A stretch of DNA of 63,874 nt, counting the filler, from Dugesia japonica (Eukaryota): NCBI GenBank assembly GCA_001938525.1. It is 6 parts of 6 records of this genome, joined end to end, with 100 filler letters (N's around TTAATTAATTAA, not from the genome) between each part and the next. Parts side by side here need not be neighbours in the genome. Positions count along the whole stretch, not along the records: positions 8,843 to 20,800 come from MQRL01604890.1; 5 more parts are not named here. The stretch is one strand, 5' to 3'. This document shows positions 13,040 to 52,529 of this stretch, one piece after another. Each line of letters opens with the position of its first letter. Within the stretch, counting starts at the first letter, position 1. Made by a program: the position numbers and the translations under genes. The notes under the pieces are model-generated. The model was not told where the DNA came from, searched no databases, and worked only from the letters and a program-made list of their open reading frames with translations.

Positions 13040-13585
13040 TAGGTTATCGGTTGAATTTTTTATTTTTTGTCTTNNNNNNNNNNNNNNNNNNNNNNNNNNN
13101 NNNNNNNNNNNNNNNNNNNNNNNCTTTGTGCATATTCTGTGTTATCTCCTCAGGCTTTTCATGCAACTGGATAGGTTACGTCTCCAATACTGCTATTGTT
13201 GTTCATCCTGGGAGATTCTATATGGGTCAGCAACCAGGAGACCCATAGAGTCTCTAAGGCTAAGCATCTCCATAGCAGACAGTATAGAAAATGTCCATTC
13301 GTTGATCTGTAAATAATTTCTTTTGTCATTCTAGATTATGGTAATATCAGATAGCATGACAATAATATTTATCAGATGAAGATTAATTGACTTAAATTAA
13401 CCTTTTTACCTCAGTAGATGTGAAATGGCGTTTTCTCGACAAGGTTGTAATTTTCATTAACCTNNNNNNNNNNNNNNNNNNNNNNNNNNNNNNNNNNNNN
13501 NNNNNNNNNNNNNNNNNNNNNNNNNNNNNNNNNNNNNATCTACTTAGGTTATCGGTTGAATTTTTTATTTTTTGTCTTTAGAAAA

Positions 13586-14790
13586 ATGGAAACAACAAAA
13601 ATTAATCGTGATAATAATATTAATTTTCAAAATTTTTTTTTGAAAAATGAGGTTTTGAGAATTTCACCATCATCTGGTTCAATAAATAATTTAATGTGTT
13701 CTGGAGATATAGTTTTTCAATCTTTACAATCTTCAAATCCATTAGATATTTGTAATTCAATGTTATATTTTAAAGTAGAGATAACTGTTTCAGATAAAGA
13801 TAAAATAAGTTTAGAAAATAATTGGTTTCCAAGTTTATTCAAAACAATGAGATTAACTTTAGGATCTTCAGATGTAGAAATTATTAATGATCCAGGAATT
13901 CATCAACAATATTAAATTTTGTAACAACTAGTTCAATTTATAAAAAGATTTATGAAGAATTATCTAGATGGATTCCTGATGAAAATAATGGTGATTTAGA
14001 TGTTACTAGTTAGAATGCAAATACTGGTTTTTTTAAAAGAAAGAAACTTTATAATTCAAAAAATAAATTTGAAGGTTATTATACTTTGAAAAATTTATTT
14101 GGTTTTTTTAAATGTTACAACAGATTATTATACAACACAATGATTGAATTTACTTGTAATAGACAAATGAATGATAATGTAATATTTTATAGGGAAGCAG
14201 GTACAACTGCTACTTTAAAATTAATGACTCTAGAACTCCACATCCCAGAATGTAGATTAGTTCCAAAAATGGAAGTAAATCCTTTAGAAAGAATTTACAC
14301 AACTAAATCTTTTCAAGTTTCATTTTTAAATAGAATTACCACAAAAACGAATTTAGATTCAGGAAATTATTATTCAGTTAAACTGAGTAATTTAACTTAT
14401 AAACCAAGATATATATTTATTGGAATAAAAGAGTCAGAAATTTAATGTCAAAAGAATAATAATTTATTTATTCAACAAATTACTAAAACTGAAAATAAAA
14501 AAGAAGGGGCTGTTGAAAAAGAAGTTACAACCAAAAGCTCTATTAAAAGTATTCAAATACAATTAAACAATACATATTATCATATTAATGAATGTAAATT
14601 TAATATTTAAAATAATGAAATGATTTTTCCATATTTAAATTATGTAAATTGTTGTAAAGAATTTTTAACAGAACCACAATTATCTTTACAAGAGTTTGGT
14701 AATTTATACCAAATCTTTTGGTTTGATGTTAGTTCCCAAAACGATAAATTAAATATAAATACCGTAGATATAACTTTACATATAACATAC
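13586..14790 (+). pseudogene. Polinton double-jelly-roll major capsid protein (hexon-like), frameshifted
   Basis: ORFs 13556, 14086 and 14620 join: NSMLYFKVEI, LENNWFPSLFKTMRLTLGSSDVEIINDPG, WIPD, NTGFFKRK, LKNLFGFFKCYNRLLY, KPRYIFIG, IQIQLNNTYY, YQIFWFDVSSQ. These match the motif order I recognise in Polinton MCPs. Confidence 0.85.
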
Positions 14791-15042
14791 ATAGATCAAA
14801 ATATTTTGATAAATTTCTTAAAGAAAATTAAATTAATTTGTATCATAATAAAAATGAAGGTAAATCAGTCTTATTATTATTTAGATAAAGAAGCCGAAAT
14901 CTTAATGGAAGATTTATTTGAAGACTGAAATATCCCACTGGGAATCTGTGGTATTCTACTTCAACTTCAACTTTAGGTTCAACTTTATGTTAAAATCTTA
15001 TATAATTTCTTTTTCTTTATTAATATTATTTTTACGAAGAAA

Positions 15043-15580
15043 ATGTCTTCAGTTTCTGTACAAGAATTAATTGATTTGATAAATTCAAAAAAATTTAAAT
15101 CTGTAAAAATTAATGGAAAAATCTATTGGATTGAAAATAAAGTTAAAGAAGAACTGAAAAAGAAAATGGCAACTAGTAAAGAACATGAAGATGTATTTGC
15201 TTTTCTAGCTGTAATATCACCAATTATAGCTGGTTTAGCTTCTACAGCTAGAATTGCAACTGGTATAGCAAGTACAGTTAGTAATTCAAGAGATGCAAAA
15301 AAAGCAAAAAGAAACCAAAGTAGTAGAATTACAGAAAAAAGATTTAGAAAATAAAATTAAAAAAGAAAAAGAAATTGAATTATTAGATAAAGGTATTGCT
15401 TCAAAGAAACAAGGAAGTGGACTTTACTTATAACCATATTAAGGAAGTGCAATTCATAAATATTTCAAAAATAGTTTAGATAATTCAGCATTGAAAATTA
15501 TAACTAAAAACTTTAAGAAAGGAGTACAAGTTAAAATAAAAGGAGATGGTTTGTATTTAAAACCTTTTAAAAATGGATAG
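15043..15580 (+). pseudogene. Adenovirus pX-like core/membrane-active protein of Polinton
   Basis: EHEDVFAFLAVISPIIAGLASTARIATGIASTV resembles a decayed GG-FLPxLxPIIAG...GIAS motif; downstream repeats KQGSGLYL*PY and KGDGLYLKPF are GxG-type, putative adenain sites. Confidence 0.7.
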
Positions 15581-16418
15581 TGAACAAATAACAGGAAGAA
15601 TAAAACTTTTGCAAGATTTAATTAAAGCTTAAGATAATTATGATAATTTATTTACAGGTAATGTAATTGAATCAAGAACTTTACAAGATACTTTAACTAT
15701 TCAACAAAAACCTACTATTAAAGCAATTGAAAACTTAGGTAAAATATCTACAAACTCATTTGAAAAAAGAATATCATTCTTTTCTAAAATTAATTTAAAT
15801 ATTAAAAATTTATCACCATTAATTACACTAACATTTAAAATAGAAAATATTGATAATAAAAACTTTCTTAAGATAAGTTATTCTAATAAAGAATTATATT
15901 TATTTGAAGAAGATGGAAAGAAATACTTTTTATCTAAAGAAGAAATAATACCATTTTCTAAAGAAGTTATGAATTTAATTTTGGGAAATGGAAGTAATGA
16001 TCTAGAAGCAATTGATATTTATTTTAAAAAATTAAAAATTACATTTCCTACTAATTCTAAATATTGTCATTTATTAACTAGGAAAAAGCGAAGCTACTTT
16101 CAGTCACAATCAAGAGCGAACAACAAAAATACCAAAACTTAAAGAAGAAGTTGATAGTGAAAAAGAAATCCCAAAGAGTTCCTTTCCTGTAGAAAAACAA
16201 GAAATTCAAAAGGGACCCATTAAAGGTGAAGGTATAAACTCCAGAGAGCACCCTGACCCATTTCTTTGTTTGAAAGATTAACATTAATAATTTCAGCTGT
16301 AAAAGCCGGTCATAATAATTTAGAACAAGAAATTAAATCTGTTTGTAAATTATTATTAAACCAAGAAAATATTACTCACGAAAAATATAATGTTTATAAA
16401 AATAAATACTTTACCTAA
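15573..16418 (+). pseudogene. Conserved Polinton protein with C-terminal RLxLxxSAxxAGHNN motif
   Basis: Starts MDSEQITGRIKLLQDL...QKPTIKAIENL and ends ISLFERLTLIISAVKAGHNNLEQEIKSVCKLLL; contains stops and frameshifts. Confidence 0.65.
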
Positions 16419-16423
16419 AGAAA

Positions 16424-17529
16424 ATGTCTCATCAATTTTTAATTGTTGGTAATGAGTCTGATCTTAAGGTTAATTTAAGATTTCCTATAGAATTAGATTT
16501 AGAATATGAAATTGGATTATTATGTTTCAGTTGTTATAATATTATTTTTAATGTTACTAATAAAAATAATACTTTCTTATGTAATGATAAATTAATAACG
16601 ATAGAGCCAGGAGCTTATGAAATTAAAGAAATATCTAATAAATTGTCAACGTANNNNNNNNNNNNNNNNNNNNNNNNNNNNNNNNNNNNNNNNNNNNNNN
16701 NNNNNNNNNNNNNNNNNNNNNNNNNNNNNNNNNNNNNNNNNNNNNNNNNNNNNNNNNNNNNNNNNNNNNNNNNNNNNNNNNNNNNNNNNNNNNNNNNNNN
16801 GAAAATAAGATTGATATTTTAAATATTAATATGATAAATATAACTTGTAATTTAGTTTAAGGTAATTATATCAATAATTACTAATGAATTTATTACATTC
16901 TTTTCTAGTAAATTCTGTTGGTTTTGGTTTTAAAATTATAGAAAGACTTTATCCTCCAATTTATTCAAGANNNNNNNNNNNNNNNNNNNNNNNNNNNNNN
17001 NNNNNNNNNNNNNNNNNNNNTGTAATGATAAATTAATAACGATAGAGCCAGGAGCTTATGAAATTAAAGAAATATCTAATAAATTGTCAACGTATAAAAT
17101 TGAAGTTACGGCAGATCAATCAACAACAAAATGTAATTTAGATATAAAAGAAAATACAATTAAATTTNNNNNNNNNNNNTTTTTTCATACAATTTTAGGT
17201 TTTTTACTTAACCAGTATCCACCAGGAAAATATTATTCAGAAAATAAGATTGATATTTTAAATATTAATATGATAAATATAACTTGTAATTTAGTTTAAG
17301 GTAATTATATCAATAATTACTAATGAATTTATTACATTCTTTTCTAGTAAATTCTGTTGGTTTTGGTTTTAAAATTATAGAAAGACTTTATCCTCCAATT
17401 TATTCAAGATTAAAATCGAAACGTATTGATTGTTTAAAATTTAATATTATAGATGAAAATAATAATCCTATAGATTTTAATAGACAAACTATTTCTTTAT
17501 TATATCATATTAGAAAATGTATGGATTGA
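16424..17529 (+). pseudogene. Polinton minor capsid protein (penton-like)
   Basis: FPIELDLEYEIGLL, YNIIFNVTNKNNTF, ITIEPGAYEI, ILGF, INITCNLV, LLHSF, GFKIIE...PIY, IIDENNNPIDFN; partly duplicated around gaps. Confidence 0.85.
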
Positions 17530-18020
17530 AGTCCTACGGGATCCTAGACTTTTTGAAAACATTTGGAATAAATACTAAAACTAATTTTGATTTGTATTCT
17601 ATTGCTGATTTTTTAAATCTTGATATAGAGGTTTTAATGAAATATTAATTAAGCGCCACGCAGGGCGCACTTTCTAAAGATAAAAATGACGACAGCGGTC
17701 TTCAAAAATTAAAAGATAAAAATAATAAATCGGTCCCACGGGACTAAATTTCTTTAATAATTAATTATCAAAATTCAAATCAAAAAGGAACTCATTGGGT
17801 TGCTTTTTCTCCCAACGGGGCCCAAGGATATTATTTTGATTCTTATGGATTAAAACCTTTTAAAAAAATAGAATAATATGTAAATGTTTCTAATAAAATT
17901 CAAGTCCAATTTTTTGGAACTTGTATTTGTAGAGTTTTATGTTTATATTTTTTATATTCACTTACATCCAAATCTTTTAATGAAATAATTAATGAATTAT
18001 ATATTAACTTAAATAAATAA
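17517..18020 (+). pseudogene. Adenain-type (C5) cysteine protease
   Basis: Manual translation: IINYQNSNQKGTHWVAF, YYFDSYGLKP, QVQFFGTCICRVLCLYFL (His/Asp/Cys triad order; CG mutated to CR). Confidence 0.88.
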
Positions 18021-18720
18021 ATGAATTTTTGTGGAGAAACATTAAATAGTCAAAATAATACAGAAATATTAAAACATGTTTCTNCTAAATTAAAATTAGA
18101 ATCTATTAATAATGAATTAAGGTTTGTTAATGAAAGTGGTGATGCAATTACTAATTTAAAAATTATTAATGATCCAAAAAATAAATTAGATGCAATTAAT
18201 TTAAAATATTCTATTAAATTAGAAAAACCAGTATCTGATTTAAAATAATCAATCTAAAAATCAAAATATTTATATTCAACAACTTTTAGAGCTTCGAGAT
18301 CAATTTTTAGAAAATAATAAATCATGGATTTAAACTACGAGTGATTTAATTATTAAAATAAATAATATCAAAAATGAGCTGACGCAAATGAAGAGTGATT
18401 TATTTAATTCACAAGTGAATACTGATAAAAATACTAAGGAAAAAAAATAGATTTGAAAAAAGAAATCGTATAACTAACAAATAAAATAATTAATTTATCA
18501 AGTACTGGTTCACCTGAAAAATTTAATAAAATTAATTTAGAATTGGAAAAACTATCACAAAAAGTAGAATTATTAAACAATCCTTTAGTTCCTTTAGAAG
18601 AAGAATTTCTTAAAATAAAACAAGATCTTCATATTGATCGTGGTAATTATATTAATGATTATCTTATAAAAATAAAACAAAAAATAACTAAAGTAAACTT
18701 TATAGAGGAAACTTTTTAAA
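18021..18720 (+). pseudogene. Putative fibre-like / coiled-coil viral protein
   Basis: N-terminal ITNLKIINDPKNKLDAINLKY resembles the P-xxxx-DAxNKxYV repeat of viral fibre proteins; heptad-rich sequence follows. Confidence 0.4.
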
Positions 18721-18775
18721 CAAAATTAAAGAAATAATTGATAATTATTTTCCTTACTCTGATAAAATAAATATA

Positions 18776-19150
18776 ATGAATCCTAAAATACTTTTTAAAT
18801 TAACTATTTTATTAACAAAGAACTCATTACTATATCATTCTGGATTAACACCATTTAAAATAAAAAGAAAAGGAATTTTAAAAAACATTAAAGAAAAACC
18901 ATATAAATATTATTTTCTCGATGAACCATTAGAACTTTATTTTTATTTTAAAAAACTATTAGAGCAAGTAATTTTTTTATTTATTGGTTATACTGATATT
19001 ATTTATTTTAAAATCTATATAGTAATAATTAATAAACTAGAAGAACATGAATTTAATTTTACTTAAAAAGAATTATTTTATCTTTCAATAAATATTAACA
19101 AAATTTTAGAGAAACATAAACCAATAGAAAGAATTACTTTAACTTTACCA
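18776..19150 (+). pseudogene. Unknown viral ORF
   Basis: ORF 18776..19066 is co-oriented and tightly packed within the cassette; no recognised motif. Confidence 0.4.
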
Positions 19151-19249
19151 GCAANNNNNNNNNNNNNNNNNNNNNNNNNNNNNNNNNNNNNNNNNNNNNN
19201 NNNNNNNNNNNNNNNNNNNNNNNNNNNNNNNNNNNNNNNNNNNNNNAAT

Positions 19250-19942
19250 CAAAATACCAGTGGGTCCTATCCCAACGGCTCCCATCCCAAAGGGTCCCAT
19301 AAATATCCTGATTTAAATGAATATATTTATAAAAAATTTGAGTATACAATTAAAGATCAAAAAAACACTATAGAAGATTTAAAAGAAAAATTATCAGATT
19401 TAAGAATTGTAGATTTTGAATCAGATTTTTATTTTATTGATGATAAAATTAACTATTATAAAAAGATTTATAAAAGATGGAGAAGATTAGATACTTCGAT
19501 TAGATTTACAGAAATATTTTTTGGAACAATTGTTGGAATAAATGNAACTATATTAATTTCTTTAGGGACGATAGTAACTTCAGGAATATTGGGAACTATA
19601 GTTCCCATAATATTAACCACATCAGTTTTTTGTATTCCAATAATTGGTACTTTGAATTCATCTTTAATAAAAGCAAAAAAGAAGAAGTATAAAGATTTAA
19701 TTCATGAATTAGATACTGTTAAGAATAAATTATTTTNNNNNNNNNNNNNNNNNNNNNNNNNNNNNNNNNNNNNNNNNNNNNNNNNNNNAATAAGCAAAAA
19801 TATGGTTAAACAAGTTAAAGATTTAATTTTCCATGAAAATAAAATTGAAAATGATTTATTAAAGAAACTTGAAGAACAAATCGTGCTAACACAAACGAAG
19901 TGCGAAAGTCAACAGAAAATAATAAATAAATTAAAAAAATAA
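19250..19942 (+). CDS. Polinton membrane protein (hydrophobic hairpin plus coiled coil) with N-terminal YPDL
   Basis: Open frame KYPDLNEYIY...YYKKIYKRWRRLD, then hydrophobic FFGTIVG..ILISLGTIVTSGILGTIVPIILTTSVFCIPIIG, then KAKKKKYKDLIHELDTVKNKL; 5' end lies in an N gap and a second N gap falls inside the ORF. Confidence 0.65.
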   Translation, partial: QNTSGSYPNGSHPKGSHKYPDLNEYIYKKFEYTIKDQKNTIEDLKEKLSDLRIVDFESDFYFIDDKINYYKKIYKRWRRLDTSIRFTEIFFGTIVGINXTILISLGTIVTSGILGTIVPIILTTSVFCIPIIGTLNSSLIKAKKKKYKDLIHELDTVKNKLFXXXXXXXXXXXXXXXXXXISKNMVKQVKDLIFHENKIENDLLKKLEEQIVLTQTKCESQQKIINKLKK

Positions 19943-20286
19943 TTTCTATTTTGAATTTCTCATTTTTACCCTTTAAAATCCCAAAGGTTCCCATCCCCAC
20001 AAATTACAATTTAATTTTAGATTTTATAAACCGGTTTATAAAACTTCTTTTTCTTTTAATTTTGAAAATGAGAACTGCAGTTCCCAATTTATAAAACGTC
20101 TTAATTTAATTTTAAAAGTGTCTACTGCAATAGACAACTTTAGGTTTTTGTTTGTTTTAAATTTTAAAGTGTCGTCAAATTTTGAACCTTAGTAATAAAA
20201 CTTCTTACTTATTTTTATATTAAACTCCTTTCAGTCGTGAGTGGAAACGGAACTACAATTTAATTTTTGTTTTAATTTATCTAAGG

Positions 20287-20800
20287 TTAATGCCACTCAC
20301 TACTATTTTCGCATTTAAATTTATTACCATGTGGCCATGTTCTTACACCATTATCTTCAATTAGGCTTTTATCATCATATCCTGTTAAAGCAATCTTTTT
20401 TTGCTCAACCAATTCTATTTCATGTTTATTTGATTTTAAACTATAATTTATTCCAAAAATATTTTCTTTTGAGTTTAGTGCCTTATCAAATTCTTTCATT
20501 CCTATTNNNNNNNNNNNNNNNNNNNNNNNNNNTCGTTTGTCTAATTGCGCCCTTTAGGATTGTCAAACTCATAAGCATAACTTTTTGCTTTTATAAAATC
20601 ACATTTTGTTATTTCATTATTAAGTTTCTCATCTTTCATTTGAAATAATTTATTACCTAATAAACTTTCAACTTTTGTTAAATTATTTCTACCTATTGTT
20701 GGGTATTCGAACTCAACAAAAGATTTTATGGTTCGTTATAAAATAAATTATTCCCAATTTGGATGTTTATCTTTTGTGTATGTAAATACAATACTATATA
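20287..20800 (-). pseudogene. Protein-primed family B DNA polymerase, C-terminal part
   Basis: KSNKHEIELVEQKKIALTGYDDK...NGVRTWPHG matches the typical Polinton pPolB ending (KxALxxxDDKR...TxxxG); upstream KAKSYAY motif. Confidence 0.85.
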
Positions 20801-20900
20801 NNNNNNNNNNNNNNNNNNNNNNNNNNNNNNNNNNNNNNNNNNNNTTAATTAATTAANNNNNNNNNNNNNNNNNNNNNNNNNNNNNNNNNNNNNNNNNNNN

Positions 20901-23152
20901 CCTCTGTATCTATTAATGAAAATAATTCCTTTCCCACTTGCATCCCGTCACAATAGTATGCTTATATGACTTTTTCTCAACCTATCATTAAAAATAACAA
21001 CAATATTGTGGTAGTTAATGATTGGCATGAATTTTGCTGAGGTATGCGTGCCCATCCATTCTCAATCTCATTTAGTTGACAACTAACTATTTTGATTACT
21101 CTAATTGCATTGTCATGTGATGGTGTTGGTTTGGGACGTATCGATTCAATAAATTTCTTCCATCCCCAATTTTGCTTTATTAGTGGTATGATATATTCTG
21201 CATTAGATCCCCGATGGGTAATTTACAGAGGACAAAGTTCTTTGACGGTTTGCTTCTGGCTATAGATATATGTGTTTGATTGATCAGATGCGCTATAGAT
21301 ATCACCATACGCCCTTTAGTTAGTTGTTCTTGTAGCAATTCATCCAACTCGCCCTCTAAGTTATCTCGCGTTTCTTGACTTGTGCCTTTACTGGAAGGTA
21401 ATTTCTTAATTGCTGACTCCAACTTTTTTACCAGTGATCTGAGGCTATCAGATAGTTAGAATTTTCCAATCCATATTTTTAGTTCCGGATATAACATTAA
21501 CAATNNNNNNNNNNNNNNNNNNNNNNNNNNNNNNNNNNNNNNNNNNNNNNNNNNCCACTTGCATCCCGTCACAATAGTATGCTTATATGACTTTTCTTCA
21601 ACCTATCATTAAGAATAACAACAATATTGTGGTAGTTAATGATTGGCATGAATTTTGCTGAGGTATGCGCGCCCATCCATTCTCAATCTCATTTAGTTGA
21701 AAACTAACTATTTTGATTACTCTAATTGCATTGTCATGTGATTGTGTCGGTTTGGGACGTATCGATTCAATAAATTTCTTCCATCCCCAATTTTGCTTTA
21801 TTAGTGGTATGATTTATTCTGCATTAGATCCCTGATGGGTAATTTACTGAGGACAAAGTTCTTTGACGGTTTGCTTCTGGCTATAAATATATGTGTTTGA
21901 TTGATTAGATGCGCTATAGATATCACCATACGCCCTTTAGTTGATTGTTCTTGTAGTAATTCATCCAACACGCCCTCTAAGTTATCTCGCGTTCCTTGAC
22001 TTGTGCCTTTACTGGTAGGTAACTTCTTAATTGCTGACTCCAACTTTTTTGCCAGTGATCTGAGGCTATCAGATAGTTAGAATTTTCCAATCCATATTTT
22101 TAGTTCCGGATATAACATTAACAATAATTGTTGTATTACTACTTATGTTGGCATGTCATCTTCCGCTGAATTTCCACTATATCTTTCCTGGGATACTGCC
22201 GCTAATCCCTTAGTTTGATGGTTCACTGAAGTTGCTAATCTCTTTTGCTATAACGCTTCCTTTAGCTCTGGGTTTCCTGGCGGTTTCGTTCTAGGTCTAC
22301 TTTGACTTATCGGTTCCGTAAGTGTTTCCGCATCTATCTTATTCCGTATAGGTGCTTTTTCTTCCAATACATGCCTAATTATTTCTTCAATTACAGTCAT
22401 TAGTCAACTGTTACGGTTGTTCTCAATGAAGTTGATCAATCTTCTGATTACAACTTACCAGTTGGGGATCCCTATTTTCCAGAACTGTGTTCATAGTAAG
22501 CATGGCTGGATATTCTTCTTAATTTCTTCCTATTAATCCTCCTTTTAATATATCTTCTTTTAATTTCTTCCTAATTAACTTCCTTAAATTTCTTCCTGAT
22601 TAGCTTTCTTTAATTTCTTCCTGATTATCTTTTATTTTCTTTTTGATTATCTTCCTTTATTTTCTTCGTGATTAACTTCCTTTATTTTCTTCGTGATTAT
22701 CTTCCTTTAATTTCTTCTTAATAAGCTTCCTTTAATTTATCTTCCTTAAATTTATCTTTAATTTCTTCCTGATTATGAGTTTCCGTGATAATTTCCGTGG
22801 ATATTCGACATGATCTCTGAAATTATAAACTAACATATTCTTATATATTTTACTTCCTAAGTTTTAACCCGATTCCTTATTAGTTTTAATTAACATTTTT
22901 ATTTAATATCATAATTCATCATTATAACCCCACTTTTAGAATGTATTATTTGACATTTATTTATTTTCACGTATTTGCGATTTTATACCATTATTAATTG
23001 TTATTTAAATATTCAATTATTAATTTATGTAGTATAACATTAACAATATTTGTCATGACATTTTCTTCTACTGTTCATGAATAAATTGTCCCTACTAAAG
23101 TTTGTTACATAGAAAATTTATTCAATATCCTTGCTGAGCCCCCAAAATTCTT
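20901..23152 (-). mobile_element. LTR retrotransposon 5' internal region (PBS, leader, gag with repeats, start of protease)
   Basis: Minus strand: LTR end ...CCCTAACA at 23152; PBS TGGGGGCTC; E/K/N-rich repetitive gag start at 22520-22810; ELFSLIDTE (DTG-like) at the contig end ~20901-20930. Confidence 0.65.
23136..23144 (-). promoter_or_regulatory. Primer-binding site complementary to tRNA-Pro 3' end
   Basis: TGGGGGCTC located 7 nt inside the putative LTR end CA. Confidence 0.6.
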
Positions 23153-23395
23153 GTTAGGGTCCCACCTGAGTTTGTAGAGGGAAAATACGGCTGGGGAAAA
23201 GACAGACTTCAGGGGACCATTCAAGAATTTGCCTAATGTCCCTAATTAGGTTATCGGCACAGAGTGGTTGACTTCCAACGTATACTTGAAGTGCTCACTT
23301 GTATGCCTTTATTTCGCGTTCATTATTTTCCCATTCTTTATGTTTAATGAATAAATTGTCAATAAAACTTGAAATTAACATTTATTTTACGCTAA

Positions 23396-23758
23396 TCACA
23401 TAAATTCTAGCGCTCCAGGGTCTAACCACTGGGTAGGCTCTCCAGTCATAAAATTAAAAGCGGCTTCGTCATCGTCGCTACTCCAACGGGCCCAGGTCTC
23501 TTGCTCGAGGTGGTTGGCCAGATCAGTGATATATTGTTGCAGAAATTCGATCTTATACAGCAGGATCTGCTTAGTATGTTCTTCCAACTCGCCCTGCTTC
23601 TTGACGATAATATCTAATTCTTTTATCATTCGGTTTCCCTGGGTCAGATGACGTAACAATGCATGCTCATTTTTTCGCTTAATGTGCTGTTCTAACAAAA
23701 GTTTCCGTATAAGTCGATGGCACAGGGGAAGACTTGATGGCAATTGTATTCTAAGCAC
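23396..23758 (-). CDS. Unknown helical/coiled-coil protein or terminal exon, 120 aa
   Basis: Uninterrupted GC-richer ORF; preceded by a pyrimidine tract plus AG (ttatccatttcgttatag); AATAAA follows the stop. Confidence 0.5.
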   Translation of the reverse strand: MLRIQLPSSLPLCHRLIRKLLLEQHIKRKNEHALLRHLTQGNRMIKELDIIVKKQGELEEHTKQILLYKIEFLQQYITDLANHLEQETWARWSSDDDEAAFNFMTGEPTQWLDPGALEFM

Positions 23759-23976
23759 TATAACGAAATGGATAAATAAAAGTTAACTCAAATGATAAAA
23801 TACAATACAATTATTAAATTATTGTAAATCAAGGATTTCAAATGGATACTAGTCATAAAGATACAACAAAGACTTTATTCTATACATAAAAGAGAATCAC
23901 AGCAAGTTATGAACGCGAGGACTGTGTCGTCTTGTCTACCATTAGGGTTCGAGTGGCATGCGCTTCCACAGCTCCA

Positions 23977-24195
23977 TTACGTCCACCACCAGTTTATTTT
24001 CACAGTCATAGAGAGACCGGATGATTTCCGCAAAGACACTAATTGTTGCTTCCAAATGCGTTCTTGCGCATGGAAAGCTTCAGCCTCTTTACGGAACATG
24101 ACACATTTGCTCTTGTAACGTTTGACTTTACTCTCTGCAACGGCAATGTCGGCCTCCCAACAGCGTTTAGCTAGTCTATAGACATCCCACGTCAT
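23977..24195 (-). CDS. Unknown coiled-coil small protein (possibly decayed)
   Basis: GC-richer ORF EADIAVAESKVKRYKSKCVMFRKEAEAFHAQERIWKQQL; AATAAA at ~23875 on the minus strand. Confidence 0.4.
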   Translation of the reverse strand: MTWDVYRLAKRCWEADIAVAESKVKRYKSKCVMFRKEAEAFHAQERIWKQQLVSLRKSSGLSMTVKINWWWT

Positions 24196-24407
24196 GTCTA
24201 TGTCTTCACTATTCTCTATAATCTTTTTTTAGGAGCGGACAGTCGATTGAGCGATGAGTAAATTATAAAAAAATAATAACAATAACCACTGAATTTCACA
24301 TAACAAATACTTTAGGAAACTAAACTTTATTTCAATGAATCAATAAAAGTTGTAAGACAAAGTTACTATGAAGAAATTTTATTTTTAACCCACTAAACGA
24401 CACCTAA

Positions 24408-24770
24408 TTAATTCTCGGGGCCTCTGAGTCTCCGTAATATATTGTTAATAAATTCTATCAACCCAGAAAAAGGCGGCAAGTGCGGTGTAGAAATCGGGAC
24501 AACAGAGGGACCTTCCCGCCATTCTCTGGTTGACTGGGGTTCACCATTATTATCTAATTGAGTAGTAATAGTGATGTAATAGGTCTCACGAGCACGATTA
24601 TGGCTGGTACAGTCGTAGAACGCCTGCCACTCCATGGCATCCCAATGCCGTTCATCGTTTACATCTGCGGTCGACAGGTTGAAGCGGTCAGCTAATACCC
24701 ACACGTTTCTATTAAACGTGTTTTTGTACCGCTTAAATATCATTTGGTCCGTCCGGTGATCAAGTAACAT
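24408..24770 (-). CDS. Unknown 120 aa protein
   Basis: ATG-initiated intact ORF with protein-like composition in an AT-rich background; AATAAA about 25 nt after the stop. Confidence 0.5.
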   Translation of the reverse strand: MLLDHRTDQMIFKRYKNTFNRNVWVLADRFNLSTADVNDERHWDAMEWQAFYDCTSHNRARETYYITITTQLDNNGEPQSTREWREGPSVVPISTPHLPPFSGLIEFINNILRRLRGPEN

Positions 24771-26979
24771 TTCCCATTTAAATTACACTGAAGTTACACT
24801 GGTCTTTATTATTTATAAAAGGAATTAAAATAATAATACTGTATGTAAAGCAAAAAAAATAACTAGACAAGTAGCAGAACAATTGAACTATTATTTCAAA
24901 AACAAAAAATATAACCACAGTAAATACTGTAAATATAGTCATAATACCCCTAACCATTGGTAGATATCCTTATAATAATGGTTTTATTAATTAACCGTAT
25001 AGTCAGAAGGGCAACAATAGTGGTGATATCATTGGTCGAGCATGATGATAGTAGTGATACGAAAATTACGAGAATAGTAATAATAATAAAGATATTGATA
25101 ATCATAGTAAAATCAATTGTAATAATAATAACACTCGTATTCCTATAACTATTGTGGTAGAATTTTTTACACTTCTTTTTAAACATCATAACTATACATA
25201 TAGGGAATAGCGATCCTCCATGATAATGACAAGAATCCTAATAAAATTACTAAGAATAATGCTGTTAATAATAAGGTTCATAATAATAATCAAACTAAAT
25301 GATATTAATAATAACAATTTTATAAACAATGAAAACCATGTAAAAATAATCTTAATTTTAAAAGTCACCACTTATTGCATAGCAATAATTATAGAAGTCT
25401 GGATAACAACGATAATAATCCGTAGTAATATGAATGATACTAACGATGCTAAAATTCATGATAAGAATGATAATAGTGATAATGCTAGAAACAATAAATA
25501 AAAAAAATAAAGTGAGATTTTAATGATAAAAATCATTAGTTAATACTATTACGTGAAATACAGTAGCAGTACCCATATTTTAAGTTTGTTGCCTTTTTCC
25601 TTTCTTCTATAGTATTAAGTTGATGAGACTATTGACAGCTTTTACTTGATGATTGATGGTGAGTAAAAAATTAATGTAATCATGGGGTTAATAGAATTCT
25701 AGGCCTATTGAGAATATCATGAAGGCTGACTAGTTGATATAAATGTGTGTATACATAAACCTTTAGTTTACTAGAGTTTTTTCGTGATGATTAGATATTT
25801 TGGGGTGACAAGGTGTATCTTGACTATCTGGTACTTGACTCAGTAGGTGTGCAGATTTCGCTGCTCTGAGCTTTCACAANTAATGTTAGACGAATCATTG
25901 ATGGCTGTCGACGTTATGCAGTTAATAGTTTTTCTAATTAATCAGCATGCATAACTCAGCAGATTAGCATTTATCATCTACAGTTAGCAAATTTCCCTGT
26001 ATTTAAAATGGAGTTTGATTTACTGGTGGGGTTATTGAAAGTGAAATTATTCTTAGTGCGAAAAATATATACACACAACTGAGTCAATTAAACATATGAT
26101 AATCTAGCGAAATAACTAAACCGCATCGCAGAATTAAATGAACTTTTATTAAATAATTATAAACAGTTTAATGAAATTAACAATTAAACAACATCACTGC
26201 AATAAATGAACTTTTATTAACAATTTTAGATAATTTAAACGTTAACTACAATTAAATAACACATGCTTACTCTATATTAATTTGCAACGGGAATGAAAAA
26301 TAATATAATTCCGAGGAGATAACTTGCCTGTTTGAGTTGTCCAACGAATTGATTTCACTATTTTCCACAAAATATGACTAATGTAGCTGTCGGAATAGTT
26401 AGAGAAATTTACTGTTTTATTTCGTTCCTTGATAACTGAATTTACAATACTTTCGATAAGCAAATTTTTGTTTATATCTGTTTATACAGAGTAAATAACC
26501 AAATTTTTTAGGGGGATATTACTAATTTTTAGGGGGTTTTATACCATTTTCAGTTACAATCTGAAATAGCTTTCATTGGTTTTCTATTTTTGTTTTTCGT
26601 TTCTTACTTCCTATTGGTGCTGGTCCCAATTTTTTGACTTTTTCTGAGAACTTTAAATCTTCTATTGGTGCCTATTTTTAGGACACCTTGTGATTTTCAG
26701 AGCTTTGTCTTACGTTTCTTTTCTGGCTCTTTATTGGCCTATTCTTCAACCCCTTTTCTAGGCTCTCTTGATAACAGCAGGGTTTTCTTGTTGCCAAACT
26801 TCATTGCCCCATAACTTTCTCTCTTCAAATTTTCTTATTGGTGTTTTCTATGATTCTCCAGAGCGGAGATATTCTACAAAAACTGATTTTCATTNAATTA
26901 ATCTTCTTTTTCGCAGTAGATTAATTAATTTTTTCTTGTTAATTAATTATTTTTTTTAACGATAATTTTCTTGTTTTTC

Positions 26980-29999: not shown

Positions 30000-32233
30000 T
30001 ATAGGGAATTCATATAAAATTATGCAAATTTATCAGAACCTCTCAGTTTGATGCTAAAGAAAGAAAACAAAATTCATTGGGCAGATGAAAATAAAGAATA
30101 TTTTTACAAGCTAAGTAAAAGGATGATAGGAACCATCAGAACTAGCTTTGCCAACAAAGGATGGAAAATATATTTTTGATACATTTGCTTCTCACAACGC
30201 AATTGGTACTGCACTTTCTCAAGTACAATATGGCAAGGAACGAGTATTATACTATACATTGAGGACACTAACAAAAAGTCAGAGACAGTACTTCATTGCA
30301 AGAAAAGAGCTTCTGGCAATATATGTGTTTGTCCTCAAGTTTAAGCACTATTTTATGGAATCACAATTTGTTGTACGAACAGATCACCAAGCATTAAAAT
30401 GAATGCTTAATTGGAATATCTCAAATACGTCTCAATACTGCATGTGTGAAGCTGGATTGGAAATCTTTGATATGATTGTAGAATTTAGAAAAGGTCGTGA
30501 GCATATTAATGCTGATGCACTTTCACGACTACCAGATTGCAAGTAGTAGTTAATAAAACTCGAAGATCCAAAAAGAAAAAGAAACGTTAAAATATACAAG
30601 ACAACAAACGAATATTAGCAACAAATTATACGCTCAGAAAAAGTTATAAATAAAATATACCAGGAAGACGAATGGGAACAAAGAAAAAATATAAATATAC
30701 AAATAAAACTAGATGCTCTAGAAAAAAACGAGAAAACACTTTGTGACGTAATGTTAAATAATGAAATACGATCGTATTGGGAGAAAAAGAAAGAAATGTG
30801 AATACGATATGAGATGCTATTTTAAGAAAAGTATGAGAAATATCTTCTTATTGTGCCGCAGACATAAAAGAGAAGATGTTATTTGGAAATATCACAAGTT
30901 ATTGGGACATCAATGAGTAGAGAAAACAACAGGAGTTATTAAAAATGAGTATTATTGTTCGTCTATGGACAAAAGCATAAGAGAATAACTATCAAAATGT
31001 AAATAGTGTAATTCACATAAATTCATTAACGGAAGAATTAAAGCACCATTACAAAATATATCCGAAAAAGAACCATTTCAAAGTATTGCAATAGATAATA
31101 CAGGACCATTTAAATCAACGCAATATGGTTATAAATATATTCTTGGAGTTGTTGATTATTTTTCAAAGTTTATGTTTAATTCTTTTGCGTACAATAACAA
31201 CTGAAGATATATGTGAAGTTCTTTGTATACATTGAATATCCAAGTTTAGAATACCTAGTCGAATACACTCGGATTATGGTAGTAATTTAGTTCAAGTACA
31301 TTTCAGAAATATTGCAAGCAATATGGAATAGTGAAAACATTTTCATCTTCATATTACCCTCAAGTAAACAGATTTGTAGAAAGAATATTTAGAACCGCAA
31401 AACCTATGATTAGAGCAGTACTAGAAGACAGGCAAATTCAAGTTTGGAGTATGCTGCTACCAATAATAAAATATGGATTATGAACAACAACACAAAAAAC
31501 GAATAAGTACTCTCTGTATGAAATAGTATTTGAGAGAAAACCTAGAATCGATATATGGATTGCTAGCAGGGAAACGAACATTACAAAGAATTCTGATCAA
31601 TATGCAGAACAATTAAGAAGAAATATTGTGAATACTCGTGGCCATGTAAGAAAAAATATAGAAGAGCATAATGAAGTTACAGCAGCTAAATATGACAAAT
31701 ATCGATGGAAAAATGAAATTAAAATTCATTATAAAGTGCTGATAAATAAACAATGCATATGATGGTTTTAAAAGGCGATATATTNGACCNTTTAAAGTAA
31801 TAAATAAAATTAATGAATAGACTTACACTTTGCTTGATAAAAATAGAAATACTTTAATTCAAAGAAATTACAACCAAATCAAATGAATACCAAGAGACGA
31901 ACTTTCCTACATGTCATGGAGCACACAGATATCAATAAGAAGTAAACAGTAAACAGACTTACCAGTACAAACTGACCGATCAACTGAGAGCGATATCAGA
32001 AGGCTTTATCCAGAAAAAATGACAAGGAATCCAAATCCTCGATATCGATAAAGCAAAGAGAGTAATGTGATATATTTAAATTATAGTAATATTTACATAT
32101 ATCGAAATTCAAATTATTGAATATTTAAAATTTAATATTAAAAAATATTAAAATGAATTTGATTTGTTTTAATATTGATTTTTTTAAAAATATAATTTTA
32201 ACTTGTTAATAATCCTATTATTTAATATCCACA
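30000..32233 (+). mobile_element. Gypsy 3' half (RNase H, integrase, PPT, 3' LTR 32066-32233)
   Basis: FDTFASHNAIGTALSQ, RKELLAI, RTDHQALK, HINADALSRLP, PFQSIAIDNTGPF, VVDYFSKF, IHSDYG, YYPQVNRFVERIFRT. Purine tract AAAGCAAAGAGAG precedes TGTGATAT...ATATCCACA. Confidence 0.88.
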
Positions 32234-33399: not shown

Positions 33400-34300
33400 A
33401 ATCGTTATCCACGTTATTGTACTTTAAATATGGGATAAAAAGAAATCTTTAAGAACCAAATAAAGACTACGTTGCGGATAAACCAACAATTCAACGTTTT
33501 GAGTGCTCAAAAGCTAGTGGTTTTCTCTGATATGTGGAAGCTTGTATAAAGTGGAAGTGTTGCTCAGACATGGCATATGGTATCCATTGAAATAGTAAGA
33601 AATCCTAAGGATTATAGTCTGGTAAATATGACAAGTACCGTATGATTTCCAAATTAAGTACTTCTAACTTAACCTGACAATTTTTGCAGTAGGCCTTGTC
33701 GTACATTTTCTTGTGATCTGGACATTTTCCATTAATGCTTCATTTAATTTCATTAATTGCAGTTTGTGTAATTTTGCAGTGATGATTTCATGGGATTTGA
33801 GAATTTCCTTTTAAACTATCCACATATGATCCCACCAAATGCGGAGCATCAGTTAGGTTCAATGTATATTTGGATTTAAGATCTATTTTGAAGGTTTGTT
33901 TGGCCTGCACTACGATTTTAAGTACCTCAAATTATCGAATCGTATACACTTCTCATCATATATGATGTTACTATGTAACATGTTTTTTAGTGTCTTTGAA
34001 AAAGCAATTCACAAGTCATTATAAGCTTTTTCATGTTTCTCAGCTTCAACTGAAACGGGACTCAATTTCCTTGCTTTTGAATCATTGTGATTGCCTTCAA
34101 ACGTTTAGAAAATGTTGATTGATTAACATTTAATGTTTCTGTAAATTCTTCTTGCGTTACAATTAGGTGTTGAATCAACTAAAGGCTCCTATTTCATTTC
34201 TAGAAACTTTTCTGGTTAACCAGGACGTTACTTGAAAAATTAGTAAAAAACGTTAATATCCTTTAAATTTTTTGACTATGAACATAAAATGTAGATACTG
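33400..34300 (-). mobile_element. Highly decayed mariner transposase remnant
   Basis: Minus-strand traces of RPG, LNVNQSTFSKRLK, IWWD and a YSPDL-like region. Confidence 0.5.
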
Positions 34301-36299
34301 GGAATCTTTGATACTAGCTATGTACTAGCAAGATGAGTTATAGTGAGAATGAAATAAAGATCCGGGAAACAATATTGAATACAGCACAAACATATTTTAG
34401 ATCAGGATTTACTTTTTACGCAAATTAATGAGTTGCATACAATAAAATCTAAAGAAACAGCTTTAAGCTTTACAATGAATCATTTTTATAATTTTCTTAA
34501 TACAATAAATGGTGTTCGTATTTTTAATTCCTTGGGAGCACACAAAAAAGATTAAAAATAATGATAGGGATTGAAAGATCTCTTGTTAAACATTATCTAA
34601 GCTGTTTTAAGTGATGGGATAATATATTTTGCTGATATTCCCATAATCTTGTTGAACTTGTTCACATTCTTTATTAATTGTTTAAAAAATATATTACTAT
34701 TCAATTTTTTTGTATATTATTTTTCTGGGTCACATGTTACATGTGATATAAAAATTCAGTTTTTAATTATTTACTAGTGACAAATGAATTTTCAAATTAT
34801 AAAATTAATAATATCTCTATTAATTATTTATCACTCAATTACAAAATCACATTAATTACATAAGTTGATGATTAATTTTAAAACAGTAAAATGATGTAAT
34901 TCTTAAAATTTCCATTCGATAATTTTAAAATTAATTTGAAGTAATTAATTATACAATCCAAAATTTATATAAAATAAAAATTTTTGTAATTCATCGATAT
35001 TTATTTTGTTTAATAGCTTCAATTAAATGAACTAAAATACCATATTTATAAAATTTTTATTTAATATTATGGGATTATGGAATTATTTGAAACTAAGAAG
35101 CATTATATAATTATTAACGGTTCAGTAGCCTTATTCTGCGATAGATTAAGTGGTTATATTAGCTTTTCTGAAGGTATTTTGGTAATATTTTTAAAATTTT
35201 AATGTCACAATATTAGCTAGTGAATTAATTAACGAATGGAATCCAGTTTGTTTAGGTACCATTAAAGGATTTATAGGAAAGCTAAAATTCTTTACAGGTA
35301 ATTATATTAATTTTATATTTTTAAAATATTGAAATCGTAATTATGGAAAGAAATTTCATTACTCTCAAATATTTGTTAGTAATTGTTAATAAATAACCTA
35401 ATTTTTTCTTTCAAATTATTTTATTTCTAAACAGTTAAAACACAATGTTCTAAAAATTTTATTAAAAAATTTCAATTATCATAACATTTATAAATTGAAA
35501 AGATAAATATTTTTTATCACAATCATTTAAAAACTAAAGAAACACACATTGAAAATTTATTCTGTGTGCTTTTTAATGTTTCTTATAGATAGCTTAATAA
35601 AAATCATTAAATAAAATAAAAATAAATCTAAAATTTCTTGAAAAATTTTGAATTTATTGTCATATATTTACCACTGTATTGATTTAAATTCTAATGTTAC
35701 ATGAAAACATCATTGATTACTTGCGAGTAATTTACAGTACAAATTAATTTGGGCATCATGCCAATCAATCTCAACTAATTCATTACTTAATTGTTTACAC
35801 AACAATTTATTTGTTTTGGAGTAATCTAAAAGTAATAGCTTTACAAATGTTTGAAATGTGTTTATAAAATTACTCAGTATTGAATTACAACAGTTTAAAC
35901 CGCTTTCAAAATACAAAAACATCTGCACAATATTTTTATAATTATTAAATAAATATTTTACAATTGCAAGAATTATTGCGAGAATAATTGTTGGACATAA
36001 CCATTGATCGTTTTATAGAATTNNNNNNNNNNNNNNNNNNNNNNNNNNNNNNNNNNNNNNNNNNNNTTAATTAATTAANNNNNNNNNNNNNNNNNNNNNN
36101 NNNNNNNNNNNNNNNNNNNNNNGCAAAAGTTGTTTGTATACATTGGTATAAAAATAAAAAAGCACAGTAATATAATATAACCATCAACACAATATAGTAT
36201 AACAATTATCAATTTAAGGTATTCTCAATCATCAACTGTTAATTTTTAATTGTTTTTGAACGTTAATATCCTTCAACTATATTTTACAATCTATATAGT

Positions 36300-39873: not shown

Positions 39874-41822
39874 NNNNNNNNNNNNNNNNNNNNNNNNNNN
39901 NNNNNNNNNNNNNNNNNNNNNNNNNNNNNNNNNNNTTATCATTGTTGTTAAATGTTATTGTTATTTGAAGATTTTACTAAATCAAATATTAAATAATAAT
40001 TAATACTTACTAAATATTTTCTGATTGTAACAAAAATTCATTATGTATTGAATGTTAATTTTTTTAACAAAATTTACATTGTTGTATTGATATGAAAACC
40101 ACTGTTGTATGAATATAAATTGATAATGAAATATTTATTCGGACACAGTCTAATTAATTGATATTTGTCGATTGCATGGTCTTATTTTGTGTCATTTATT
40201 ACTGAGTAACAATACTACTTTTCCAATAGTCAGTAGTAAAGTATGTTAATATTTATTTAATATTACTTCAATCATTTTAATAAAGTGACAAACAAAACAC
40301 TGAATATATTTTCGGCTAAATAATGAAATTTTGTTTTGTAAAATATCGACTTTAGATAACATTGATTTTTTCGATGAAAATTATAATTGGTAATATGGGG
40401 AATTATAACAAAATTAACAAATCACACACAACACTGTATTAAAGAAATATTTTCCCTCGGATGATTCATACATTTTACAACAGTGAATACAGAAATGTTT
40501 AGACTGAAAGACACCCTGCTAATATTCATCATAAACTAATAGTTTTGAAAAATTTTTATATTTTCAATTGAATGTGAAAAATATTTCAAAGAAAATCAAA
40601 CTTTTAAAATAAACAATAAAACTTTCAATCAAACGGTTGTAAACTGTACCAATTAAAATGATAATTCTATAGCTTTCAAATAAATCTCATCACCATCAAT
40701 TGTATTTTTTTAAATTATTATTTAAAAATAAAATTTACTTGAAAATGATCATGCATCTCTTCTATTTCTCGTTGCATTTCCTCTTGTTCTTCTTTCAACA
40801 TGTCATTCTCTTCCATAACATCTTGGCACAGTTGTTCAATTTCTTCCATTCTGACTCTCAACTGTTCATTTTCAGCTAGAATTTCTTGATGTTTAGTACT
40901 CATTGATTCGTTAACATCAATATTGGCTTGATCGCTTTCCGGTAATTTCAGTCTTTCTCTGAATAATTAAATTTCTTTTAAATAAATACAATATCAAATT
41001 TCATTTTGATTTTTATGTATCATTTGCACATTTAATGATTACATAATAGAATAAATTTTGATCTATTTATTTTGTAAATAAATAAATAGATGTAGAATAA
41101 AAATTAAAAATCAAAAAAACAAAAAGATTTTACCGATAGCTGCGAACTTCGTCGTCTAAATGTTGAATTCTTCTTTCATAATGAATTGTTTTATTTTTTA
41201 AAGCTTCAATGTCTTCCAATAAATCTTCATTCAAATGATTTTTATCAGTCAACTCCTTTTCCAACTCTGCTTTTTCTTTACAAATTTCATCGTATTTGTC
41301 TTCCAAATCAAAGAAATCGTTTTCTAACTCTTCAACATATTTCGTATCGATACTTGAAGTGGAATTTTGTCTGTTAGCAGAAAACGAACCAGAATGTCTT
41401 GAAACACTGGATGATGGACTATTTGCTGGGCTTCTTCTTCCCGTGTTTGATCCCATTGTTCTTTTACTTTCTCTTGGTGATGGAGTTTTCTGTTTGAATT
41501 CGTCTGATTTTGGTCGTCGTCGAGTGTTTGGCGATGTTTCACCCTTTCTCAGTACCGGATCTTTTGAAATTCCACTAATTGATGTCGACTGAGAATTACC
41601 ACTACTCGTCGATTTTGTTCCTAATAATGGACTCGTTCTTGGACTAATTCCTTTACCATTATTTCCACTATTAGTTAAAGGCTCAGTAGGATGATCAGGT
41701 AAAGATCTGAAACAATTTTTACAAACAGTTCTTCTCCATTGTTGCGGTTCAAAAGTATAACATTCCTTTTTCTTTGATAAAGTTCCAGATCCTTCTCGGG
41801 TTCGATTATTATTTGATGCCAT
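37887..41822 (-). CDS. SOGA/MTCL-like: SOGA/MTCL-family coiled-coil protein, 5' part. Exons 41822-41134, 40958-40739, 38997-38791, 38737-38564, 38444-38382, 38327-38109, 38058-37887; 3' end not seen
   Basis: All introns are GT-AG and phase-consistent. Family signatures: EIEEMHDHFQEDDTDTLRELKRDLETSNKNCRIFQFKLRKTERR, EELRVAKEVSVRLNSELELVDEKR, ERETDLTEQLKFAEDD. No stops. Confidence 0.92.
39790..39873. repeat. (ATT)n microsatellite; others at 42904-42939, 45004-45071, 47646-47676
   Basis: Direct reading. Confidence 0.95.
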
Positions 41823-42943: not shown

Positions 42944-45003
42944 AACCTAAGAGATTTTTGAATTCTTTACTGATCTAAATCAGGGGGCTTTAACCGGTGA
43001 TGTGTTTCGATTTTGAAAGGAGATATGTACATTTTTATATATACATTTATATACATTTTAAAAACTATGCTATGAAGTTCTCACCTTACTAATGGAAAGC
43101 AGCAACTATTATCTCATTAAGGCAGGCCTAGATTTCTTCAAAAAAATGTTTTCTTTCTTAGGTGACGTAATAATGTCAAAAGTAAAATCATATTCATTAA
43201 ATATATTTCAATTTATTGTTAATTTTGAGTATATATGTGAGATTAACTAAGTAAAATCAATTTTAGTGGAGGTGTAAATGTAAAAATTAAGAATCTGTGG
43301 TCTTAATCATTTTACGAAAAATAATTAATAGCAATGTTTTAATGATATTGTAGTTAAGAATTTGTTAATAGAAAAATATTATACTTTTGTTGAATTCAAT
43401 TAAATTAAAGAATTCAATTGGAGCAAATTAATTCAAGTTGAACCAAAACCATTATCTTGATAACATCGGATCTTTGCAAATTTCATTTTTATGTCATATT
43501 TCTTCATTATTATTTATCAATTTATTCATTTCTATTCATTAAATATGAAAATGAATTATTTAACAAAATTTTGCCCGTCTAAATTGGTTCTGCCAATTTA
43601 ACATAATAACAACCAAAAGAAATTTACAGAAATTCTTATTAAGCTAATGTTGTAATAAGAAACAGAAATCTGAAAACAGTTTCAAAAACTCTTATAACTC
43701 TAATTACTAAATCTTTTTAATTTTTCTTTCAAATGTAATTAATACCAATCAGTTCCGTCAAGCTAATATTTTCGTTATGGAACTGTCTGTTGGAGACTTT
43801 ATGTGTGACAACAATAGAAAGACGAGAGCTTACAGTCTACCAAACTAAGTTTTTTAATATTTAATATCATATACTCATCATATAATATTTAGATGAGTTA
43901 TTTATTTGATTAATTATTTATTTGACCAATTTCTAATAACATAAAAATAAAGAAAAATTATAATGTTATCGTTAACCAAACACAGATTGTAACGAAGCCG
44001 ACACAATACGTTTAATACTTGATTTTTTAAGTACCCCCGAACTAAGGATACTTAGAATTCTTAGTATATTTCTATAAACCTGGATGTGTTGATTTTGATG
44101 GTTTTTAATACTAATGATAAATGAATTAAAAGTTTAATAATTTTTTTAGTTGTATATGAGAAAATAGATCATTTAATTGTGATATTTAATATCATATGAA
44201 CCCAGTAAACTAACATTTAGTTACGTGGCACGCTAAAACGAAAATATTGAACAATAATAAAATATAAATTATTTAATTAAAATAATAGCTTCAATCAAAA
44301 TGTTATTTTTGTTTGTTTCTTCTTTNNNNNNNNNNNNNNNNNNNNNNNNNNNNNNNNNNNNNNNNNNNNNNNNNNNNNNNNNNNNNNNNNNNNNNNNNNN
44401 NNNNNNNNNNNNNNNNNNNNNNNNNNNNNNNNNNNNNNNNNNNNNNNNNNNNNNNNNNNNNNNNNNNNNNNNNNNNNNNNNNNNNNNNNNNNNNTTTTAT
44501 TGATTATTGTTTTAGATATTATGATTTTTATTGATTTTTTTTTCATTGGCCTACACGTAACAGTTTCACAGTAAAATAATTTTTCATTAATATGGTAAGT
44601 ACATATTACAATTTTGATTCAATTTCCGATTATTTTATTTCAATTATTCATTGAAAAAAAATGAGAACTGGTGAATTAAAGTGAAATCTTTCAATTTGTT
44701 AAAAAAAAATTTCCAAGAAAAATTCCTTTATATTTATCCAAAAATGTATAAAAAATATTAAACTAATTAAAAATTTAATATTAAAATATTTAAAAATTAG
44801 AATTCATTTAATATAAAAGCTTAGATCAGAATTTAGGTTTTATATTAAATGAATTCTATAAAACGATCAATGGTTAAGTCCAACAATTATTCTCGCAATA
44901 ATTNNNNNNNNNNNNNNNNNNNNNNNNNNNNNNNNNNNNNNNNNNNNTTAATTAATTAANNNNNNNNNNNNNNNNNNNNNNNNNNNNNNNNNNNNNNNNN
45001 NNN

Positions 45004-48566: not shown

Positions 48567-50349
48567 TATATTTATTACAAAATAAAAACAATACTGATAA
48601 CCGTATTTATTAGTAAAACAGATATTTTAAAAATACAAATCTTAAAGATTTTGTGATTCATAATGAGCTGGATTGTTTTATTTATTTAAAATTGTTTTAC
48701 GGAAGTATGGCAAGTGGCACGATTCTGTTAAAGCCACATGTATTTGACATTCATACCATTTAACTAAGACAATAAAACTTAGTTATCATGCGCCGATACT
48801 ATTTGTCAACAGTAACATGTTTAAAATGTATTCCTTTCTCATGAAACACATGCGGGTCTTCGTCACTCTAAACAAGACAAATTTGTATGTTTACCAAGCT
48901 ATCAACACGAAAATGGTTTCCATTTCTGAAGATGATTTTAAACGCAAATGTCAGCGTTTATGTCACAATCAAATATAAATTTGGTAGAAATGAAGACACA
49001 AATCGTTTGTAAGAATACATTGCATAAATCTTCTTAAAATGCTCAATTCTTGAGCGAGATGGAAAATGGATGATTCCAGACTCTTGGCTACATTCTGCCA
49101 AATAAACGGGACGTCTATTTACCTCTGAACAACATGTACGAAAACGTGTCAATGATCTGACATCAGTTATCAACTCAGACGTCTAAATTATCAATTTACT
49201 TTTAATAAGAAGAAATTGTTCACCATAGATTATTTTATAAATTTTTCACTGTCAAAGCAAAACAGCAATAATACAGCCCAATTAAAATTTTCCGATGCTG
49301 CTGAGACACCATGTGATACAATAACGCAAAGTAAAATTCAATTTCATGTGATTATTTGAACTTTTAGTTTCATACAGACTTCATACACATCATTATTTAA
49401 TTCATATTATTATATTTTTAAAAGAAAGAAAGCGAAAAGTCAATTCCTGACGAAGACAAAGTCGAAATATACAATCTTTATCAAAAAACCAAATTTTGAT
49501 CGAAGCTTTATTTTAAATGAATTCTGAAAAACGATCAATGATTATGTCCAATAATTATTCTCGCAATAATTCTTGTAATTTTAAAGAAAAGCGTCTCAAT
49601 AATTCGATTATCATCAATAAATAAAATAAATATAAATTAATATTTATGTTTATTATTAATTATAATTATAATTGATTATATTTGTAAAGAATTTATTCTT
49701 TAAAACGTCTGCTTCTATTGAAGTGGCGAACGAAANATTCTATTGAATAAGAGTATATATTGTCATTTTTCAAAATACAAGTTTCGTATTCTTATTCCTT
49801 CCTGTTTCCGATAAGCAATCAAGATTGATAATTTTATACAACCAAATCAAGGAATTTTCTCAGCAAATATTCTAAAGTGATTGTGAAATTAATTTATAAC
49901 GAGAATACTTTTTTATTAAAGAGATTCATACTAATTAAGAATGATGGTTCTTTTAGAGGCTTTTTTTAACTTTCTCTTTCTTAATATCCTTTGAACAAAC
50001 CAATTTAATTTTCACCTGTCCTTCAAATTTCATTTGACGTTACAGTTTACATCAAATGGGCAAATAATTGTTAGAAATGTTATCATTTCTCAGTTAATTT
50101 TCTTAGAATATTTATTAATTAAATTCCAAGTGTGTAAAATAATTAATTTTGCAGAAGAAATTACAGGAATAAAGATGATTTATTTTTTTTGAAGCTCAGT
50201 GAGGAAAGCGTTTTTGTTTTAATCAGACCAATCACATTTCACGAGTTCTTGTACTCGATTTATTTAGTTTGTGATATTTTCTGATAATTTACAAATGATA
50301 TAAACAAGTATAAAATAAATGTATTGTTAAGTATAATATCTAATATATA

Positions 50350-52489: not shown

Positions 52490-52529
52490 ACTTCTTTTAA
52501 AAAGTCAAAAAAGTCAATTAAAATAAAGT

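Follow-up and report, generated by a model that had tools for sequence, protein, structure and literature searches.

The cassette between positions 13586 and 20800 of the window (the whole stretch analysed, 63,874 nucleotides with filler, joined from six parts of assembly GCA_001938525.1, labelled Dugesia japonica) raises the question of whether a row of broken genes is the remnant of a virus-like transposon of the Polinton/Maverick type and, if so, what became of it. Very probably it is a dead copy, with an internal deletion, of a Polinton/Maverick (adintovirus-type) family that is abundant in its host, a free-living flatworm and most likely a planarian. This agrees with the first-pass annotation, which read the locus as a Polinton/adintovirus-like fossil and is supported by the capsid fold, by proxy, and by the polymerase, by homology. 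Between 13586 and 19942 the + strand is densely packed with broken reading frames, and on the − strand a short frame has its end at 20287 (Table 1), so that the gene-dense cassette converging on a polymerase described there is found, with broken + strand genes from 13586 facing a − strand polymerase C-terminus.

Table 1. Coordinates of the cassette genes and of other features of the window.
Feature	Coordinates	Strand	Basis
High-copy repeat with subterminal tandem array and Polinton-like terminus facing left	8843..10439	.	Depth, array, end sequence
Double-jelly-roll major capsid protein pseudogene	13586..14787	+	PF21738; tblastn 53% to P0003-P0005; fold of a relative
Tentative: possible rve integrase core scrap joined onto the broken capsid gene	14787..14903	+	Local alignment to P0194
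Small basic core-protein-like gene in pieces, with hydrophobic Ala/Gly stretch	15043..15583	+	Translation
Gene in three pieces ending in putative AGHN domain (label unverified)	15576..16418	+	Translation
Probable penton (minor capsid) pseudogene	16424..17529	+	Location ahead of the protease; gene length; presumed motif pattern
Adenain-type maturation protease pseudogene	17517..18020	+	PF00770 below cut-off; motif order
Fibre-like/coiled-coil gene in pieces (label unverified)	18021..18719	+	Translation
Gene without assigned label, one stop	18776..19154	+	Translation; no Pfam match
Membrane protein gene with two helices (SLATT likeness a lead only)	19247..19942	+	Atlas features
Family-B (putatively protein-primed) DNA polymerase C-terminal end, frameshifted, cut at join	20287..20800	−	Homology and motifs
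Linker (N44-spacer-N44), not biological	20801..20900	.	One of five identical copies
SOGA/MTCL1-family exon	41130..41819	−	Protein search; different segment from cassette

The main piece of the major capsid protein (MCP) gene, translated with X at its stops, matches PF21738 with an E value of 1.2e-13 (51.5 bits against a curated cut-off of 27). A protein search returned five relatives among 1,300 candidates, 48–53% identical, three of which are full-length (431–432 residues). In tblastn, residues 6–394 of one of them, the intact P0003 (432 residues), are covered at 53–54% identity, residues 6–115 in one frame and 116–394 in another. Its reading frame shifts once, near 13900, and is interrupted by three in-frame stops; the gene also has an insertion of about 16 codons relative to its relatives and lacks its last ~38 codons, a tail forming the last two strands in the predicted model of the relative. 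The final 40 residues of each of eight intact relatives were searched for in 14780–15200, where in all eight cases they scored no better than the best background windows; the deletion is therefore real, which bears out the earlier suggestion of a capsid 3' break or internal deletion at about 14790, and a tail lying there in another frame is rejected on the same search. A second capsid remnant considered at 33866–33979 is unsupported (profile E 0.1).

The fold was modelled on intact P0003, not on the broken gene of the window; an alignment of 105 sequences gave a predicted local distance difference test (pLDDT) score of 93.4 and a predicted template modelling (pTM) score of 0.91, and was used instead of an earlier fold on 12 sequences (pLDDT 43). 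Foldseek aligns this model with the capsids of iridovirus, PBCV-1, Sputnik and mavirus (E about 1e-14, TM 0.56–0.67) and also returns an adintovirus entry among viral models. A PDB sequence search with the capsid profile was blank. Given its 53% identity to P0003, the capsid of the window is predicted to be a double jelly roll, so that the fold anticipated in the first-pass annotation stands by proxy of an intact relative. The profile search gathered 905 representatives (E ≤ 0.001), and a tree of 38 rows (37 chosen near-full-length relatives and the window piece, with no named reference groups among the rows) joins the window piece to P0003–P0005 (support 95/91) and then to P0018–P0019 (100/99) in nested supported sets. 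P0003–P0005 are environmental capsids from contigs under 3 kb, 52–53% identical to the main piece; their reading frames are intact, whereas the window capsid is broken. This clade (window, P0003–P0005, P0018, P0019) has no named member among the clusters checked and could help to annotate flatworm Mavericks.

The polymerase is represented by a 72-residue piece (20290–20505) which is matched by 20 of 81 candidates (E 1e-5 to 9e-4, threshold ≤ 0.001). Among these 20 relatives, the pattern YxDTDS/YxNTDS occurs in 15, a second pattern in five and a third in three, and three of the 15 have all of them; we take the patterns to be motifs C, B and A, respectively. The peptide at 20287–20800, predicted to be PolB, is confirmed as such by homology, with 20287–20505 matching the C-termini of family-B polymerases, putatively of the protein-primed type. 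A profile match with an E value of 1e-14 is circular, the profile having been built from matches to the same piece, and the profile did not recover the piece at 20544–20800 in its longest frame. The relatives have no match in Pfam, NCBIfam or PDB. None of the nine scanned matches PF03175, as in the divergent polymerase class (OTU-PolB) of the Beta adintoviruses, which PMC8502044 places outside PF03175 and with which these misses may fit; the window polymerase lacks its N-terminus.

One polymerase relative, P0194, continues into an rve integrase (E 1.2e-9), and the 39 codons at 14787–14903 align to its integrase part with a score of 46, which was reached by 25 of 2,000 shuffles (p about 0.01). 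This score is tied 6th–8th among 3,610 window frames, five of which score higher, and the region has no Pfam match. It is possibly an integrase scrap; the earlier statement that the integrase is missing from this piece may thus be slightly wrong, for these 39 codons.

The remaining genes of the virion module are recognised with varying strength. The protease matches PF00770 weakly (E 0.004–0.009; best 17.2 bits against a cut-off of 21.3) and contains three in-frame stops. Motifs with His, Asp and Cys follow one another in it as they do in adenain, presumably as the catalytic triad; its PDB sequence search was blank. The gene upstream is probably the penton; its region is ~440 bases too long from assembly duplications, and its piece has no match in Pfam, PHROGs, NCBIfam, phage tblastn or PDB sequence searches. 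The small basic gene contains two GxGLY motifs, at 15413 and 15542, and no family match was found for it in Pfam, PHROGs or NCBIfam; the label 'pX-like/cupiennin-like' is our assumption, verified by no search. The AGHN gene gave no informative match in Pfam or PHROGs and no usable Atlas match, and the fibre-like gene gave sub-threshold Pfam matches only. In the Atlas, the membrane protein gene falls near SLATT-like viral clusters (0.88–0.90), the second of which carries SLATT_4 in 18%, at a recognition value of 2018 that is below the 2300 mark. No FtsK-type packaging ATPase was found among the window pieces scanned, in a copy that is internally deleted and cut at 20800.

The polymerase piece stops at 20800 because an artificial linker joins there, and this is not a biological end. 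Five identical 100-base linkers (N44, a 12-base spacer with a stop in all frames, N44) lie at 8743, 20801, 36023, 44904 and 53732, and the order of genes on either side of them is not reliable. The sequence leading up to the capsid start is near single-copy, and therefore no left element end is attached to this copy. The one terminus-like sequence seen belongs to the repeat at 8843–10439, whose depth of 27,000–74,000 drops after 10438 and which contains a tandem array of 63/112-base units (10089–10390). On the − strand, its end at 10439 has the sequence AGTAGA, which differs by one base from the (AGT)2-type Maverick terminus described in vertebrates (PMC8097293). This terminus was rejected as the left end of the copy, as it faces away from the cassette; it has no partner within the window, and the repeat is probably the end of another element. 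Run X13 RNA reads over 10040–10438 are strongly stranded (172 against 15), mostly fitting only in part.

The abundance of the family is seen in sequencing runs. The run index lists 11 runs from five studies as containing part of 13580–16653 (at most 0.34 of its sampled words) and lists no RNA run as containing words of it. Four of 24 listed runs were mapped as contigs onto 8843–20800 at 85% likeness. Two DNA-type runs, each of a different study, have a summed depth of contigs, which by the tool's own warning is no copy number, of 2,600–27,000 over 13631–20800 against 23–33 over 11636–12832, or about 90–1,000 times the flank. Over the whole 12-kb stretch, 7,943 of 19,443 contigs of run X1 are 90–95% alike and 2,219 are at 99% or more, with most under 95%. 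This shows that the element is one of a large diverged family. The word 'fossil' in the first-pass annotation therefore holds for its decayed state and fails where it implies rarity, as the cassette depth marks such a family. Next to the capsid frameshift, some contigs do not agree with the window, and this break is therefore not common to all copies; no intact copy is shown among the run contigs, which are short. Full-length related loci were found neither in viral contigs (queries P0003, P0194 and A1) nor in metagenome contigs (A1 and P0187). Run X8, which has a second organism label, contains 0.13 of the words of the cassette, a lead only that a related species shares the family.

Taken together, the features of a Polinton/Maverick found here are a double-jelly-roll MCP, a family-B polymerase, seen on its C-terminal tail only, and convergent polymerase and virion modules that are multicopy in the host. 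Several points weigh against this assignment. The polymerase evidence is a tail of ~60 residues, no packaging ATPase, sure integrase, terminal repeat pair or 5–8 bp target-site duplication is tied to this copy, and the penton and accessory labels are without database support. The host SOGA/MTCL1 gene lies beyond a linker, the depths are subject to the warning given above, and X1 may be the source sample.

If the Polinton/Maverick assignment is right, an rve integrase would insert the intact members into the host DNA, and a protein-primed polymerase would synthesise their own DNA, as PMC4028283 and PMC8097293 describe for Polintons. They would also code for the capsid, the penton, the protease and the core and fibre proteins of a virion module that faces the polymerase module. 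After insertion, this copy would have lost its left end and the sequence separating the capsid 3' end from the integrase region, and would then have decayed neutrally through the stops and frameshifts that are seen in it, probably in that order. It can make neither capsid nor polymerase and, by analogy with PMC8532177, which names Polintons as SMEDWI-2 targets, would be at most repeat DNA silenced by PIWI-interacting RNAs.

The alternative that survives best is that the broken look is partly an assembly artefact, the locus being a mosaic of collapsed high-copy repeats in which the stops and the junction at 14790 need not share one chromosome. The window has 48 runs of N, artificial linkers, and exact duplications beside N gaps, both to the left of the cassette (12619–12958 = 13124–13463) and in the penton region (74 bp, 16580–16653 = 17021–17094; 170 bp, 16801–16970 = 17240–17409). 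The best run shares only the low fraction of sampled words given above, and no long near-identical contig covers the cassette, unlike the flank, among the contigs listed (16 of over 42,000 pieces). However, 13538–16653, which includes the capsid 3' junction, is gap-free, short contigs are expected of a high-copy repeat, and the identity of the element would be unaffected. Such a mosaic is unlikely, though it keeps a real share of the probability.

The dead copy of a Polinton/Maverick family so inferred has close counterparts in the literature. Table S1 of PMC4028283 (2014) lists four Polintons of Schmidtea mediterranea (Polinton1_SM, Polinton-1_SM, Polinton2_SM and Polinton-2_SM), 11.6–15.9 kb in length, with MCP marked in three of four, penton and ATPase in four of four and protease in two of four. 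The host here is probably a planarian as well, and the likeness is one of description; the window copy differs in being broken, deleted and cut. A Maverick expansion in Dugesia has been reported, as have Orthopolintovirales insertions in flatworms (10.1101/2025.04.19.649669). The Beta adintoviruses have capsid, penton, adenain and small core-like genes (PMC8502044), to which the capsid gene and the putative penton, protease and core-like genes of the window copy would correspond; of their integrase the copy has at most the possible scrap, and no FtsK ATPase was found among the pieces scanned. Their class also has GasderminX and cupiennin accessory genes, candidates for which at 15043–16418 gave no match. 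A term search of an adintovirus supplement gave no flatworm names, and other adintovirus supplements may list flatworm elements. Vertebrate Mavericks, as described in PMC8097293, share the two convergent modules and the decay (96% of loci) but have the order integrase, penton, PW, MCP, protease, whereas in the window MCP comes first and the probable penton is next to the protease. The element is real, correctly named and ordinary: it is decayed, and its kind is already known from this host group. Planarians have been known to carry this repeat class since at least 2014, and a single dead copy has little significance alone. Only a demonstration that the family makes particles would change this; Maverick particles were unseen as of 2021, according to PMC8097293.

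It is improbable, though worth stating, that the family is a still-infectious, flatworm-specific polintovirus lineage of which the P0003–P0005 clade would be the circulating members, with some planarians naturally shedding particles. If this were true, the question of whether animal Polintons form virions would move into a laboratory animal. Less probable still, and very much so, is that a contaminant, the DNA of a free virus or a protist Polinton-like virus, was built into a scaffold of the assembly: the closest intact capsids do come from short environmental contigs and the cassette is more AT-rich than the window (22.5% against 28.2% GC), but its genes are decayed, and DNA runs that separate studies made under one organism label contain thousands of diverged related contigs. 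Domestication, in which the host would have co-opted the viral module for its own use, would explain the retention of many genes in order and nothing more, and can be practically dismissed in view of the three stops each in capsid and protease and of an RNA depth on the cassette, over both strands, of 0–0.25 in run X12 and 0–3.4 in X13 (from reads amounting to about 6% and 25% of these runs).

Other features lie elsewhere in the window. The SOGA/MTCL1 exon has 21 matches among 3,561 candidates, of which the 18 with species names are all from tapeworms or flukes (34–38% identity where coverage is near full), and the gene spans 40760–41819 (−) with at least two exons. These matches place the host among the flatworms, at a distance from the parasitic ones, and the low GC of the window (28%) makes a planarian likely (10.64898/2025.12.11.693146). 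A decayed reverse transcriptase, putatively of the non-long-terminal-repeat type, occupies 1809–3677 (+; RVT_1, E 2e-12), and a putative Gypsy-type reverse transcriptase/RNase H occupies 4210–5903 (−; E 1e-27). An rve integrase remnant at 31040–31468 (+; E 1.6e-4, below cut-off) is outside the Polinton element. The region 20934–24800 (−) is a mobile element that is GC-richer (31–37%) and has no Pfam match; several of its frames are broken, and it contains a 25-base tandem array (22551–22776) and a 97%-identical duplication. Finally, a dispersed repeat of ~52–69 bases occurs in both orientations at 35957–36022, 44835–44903, 49507–49585 and 50766–52625, and together with a 108-base hairpin at 52394–52625 is possibly a small inverted-repeat transposon.

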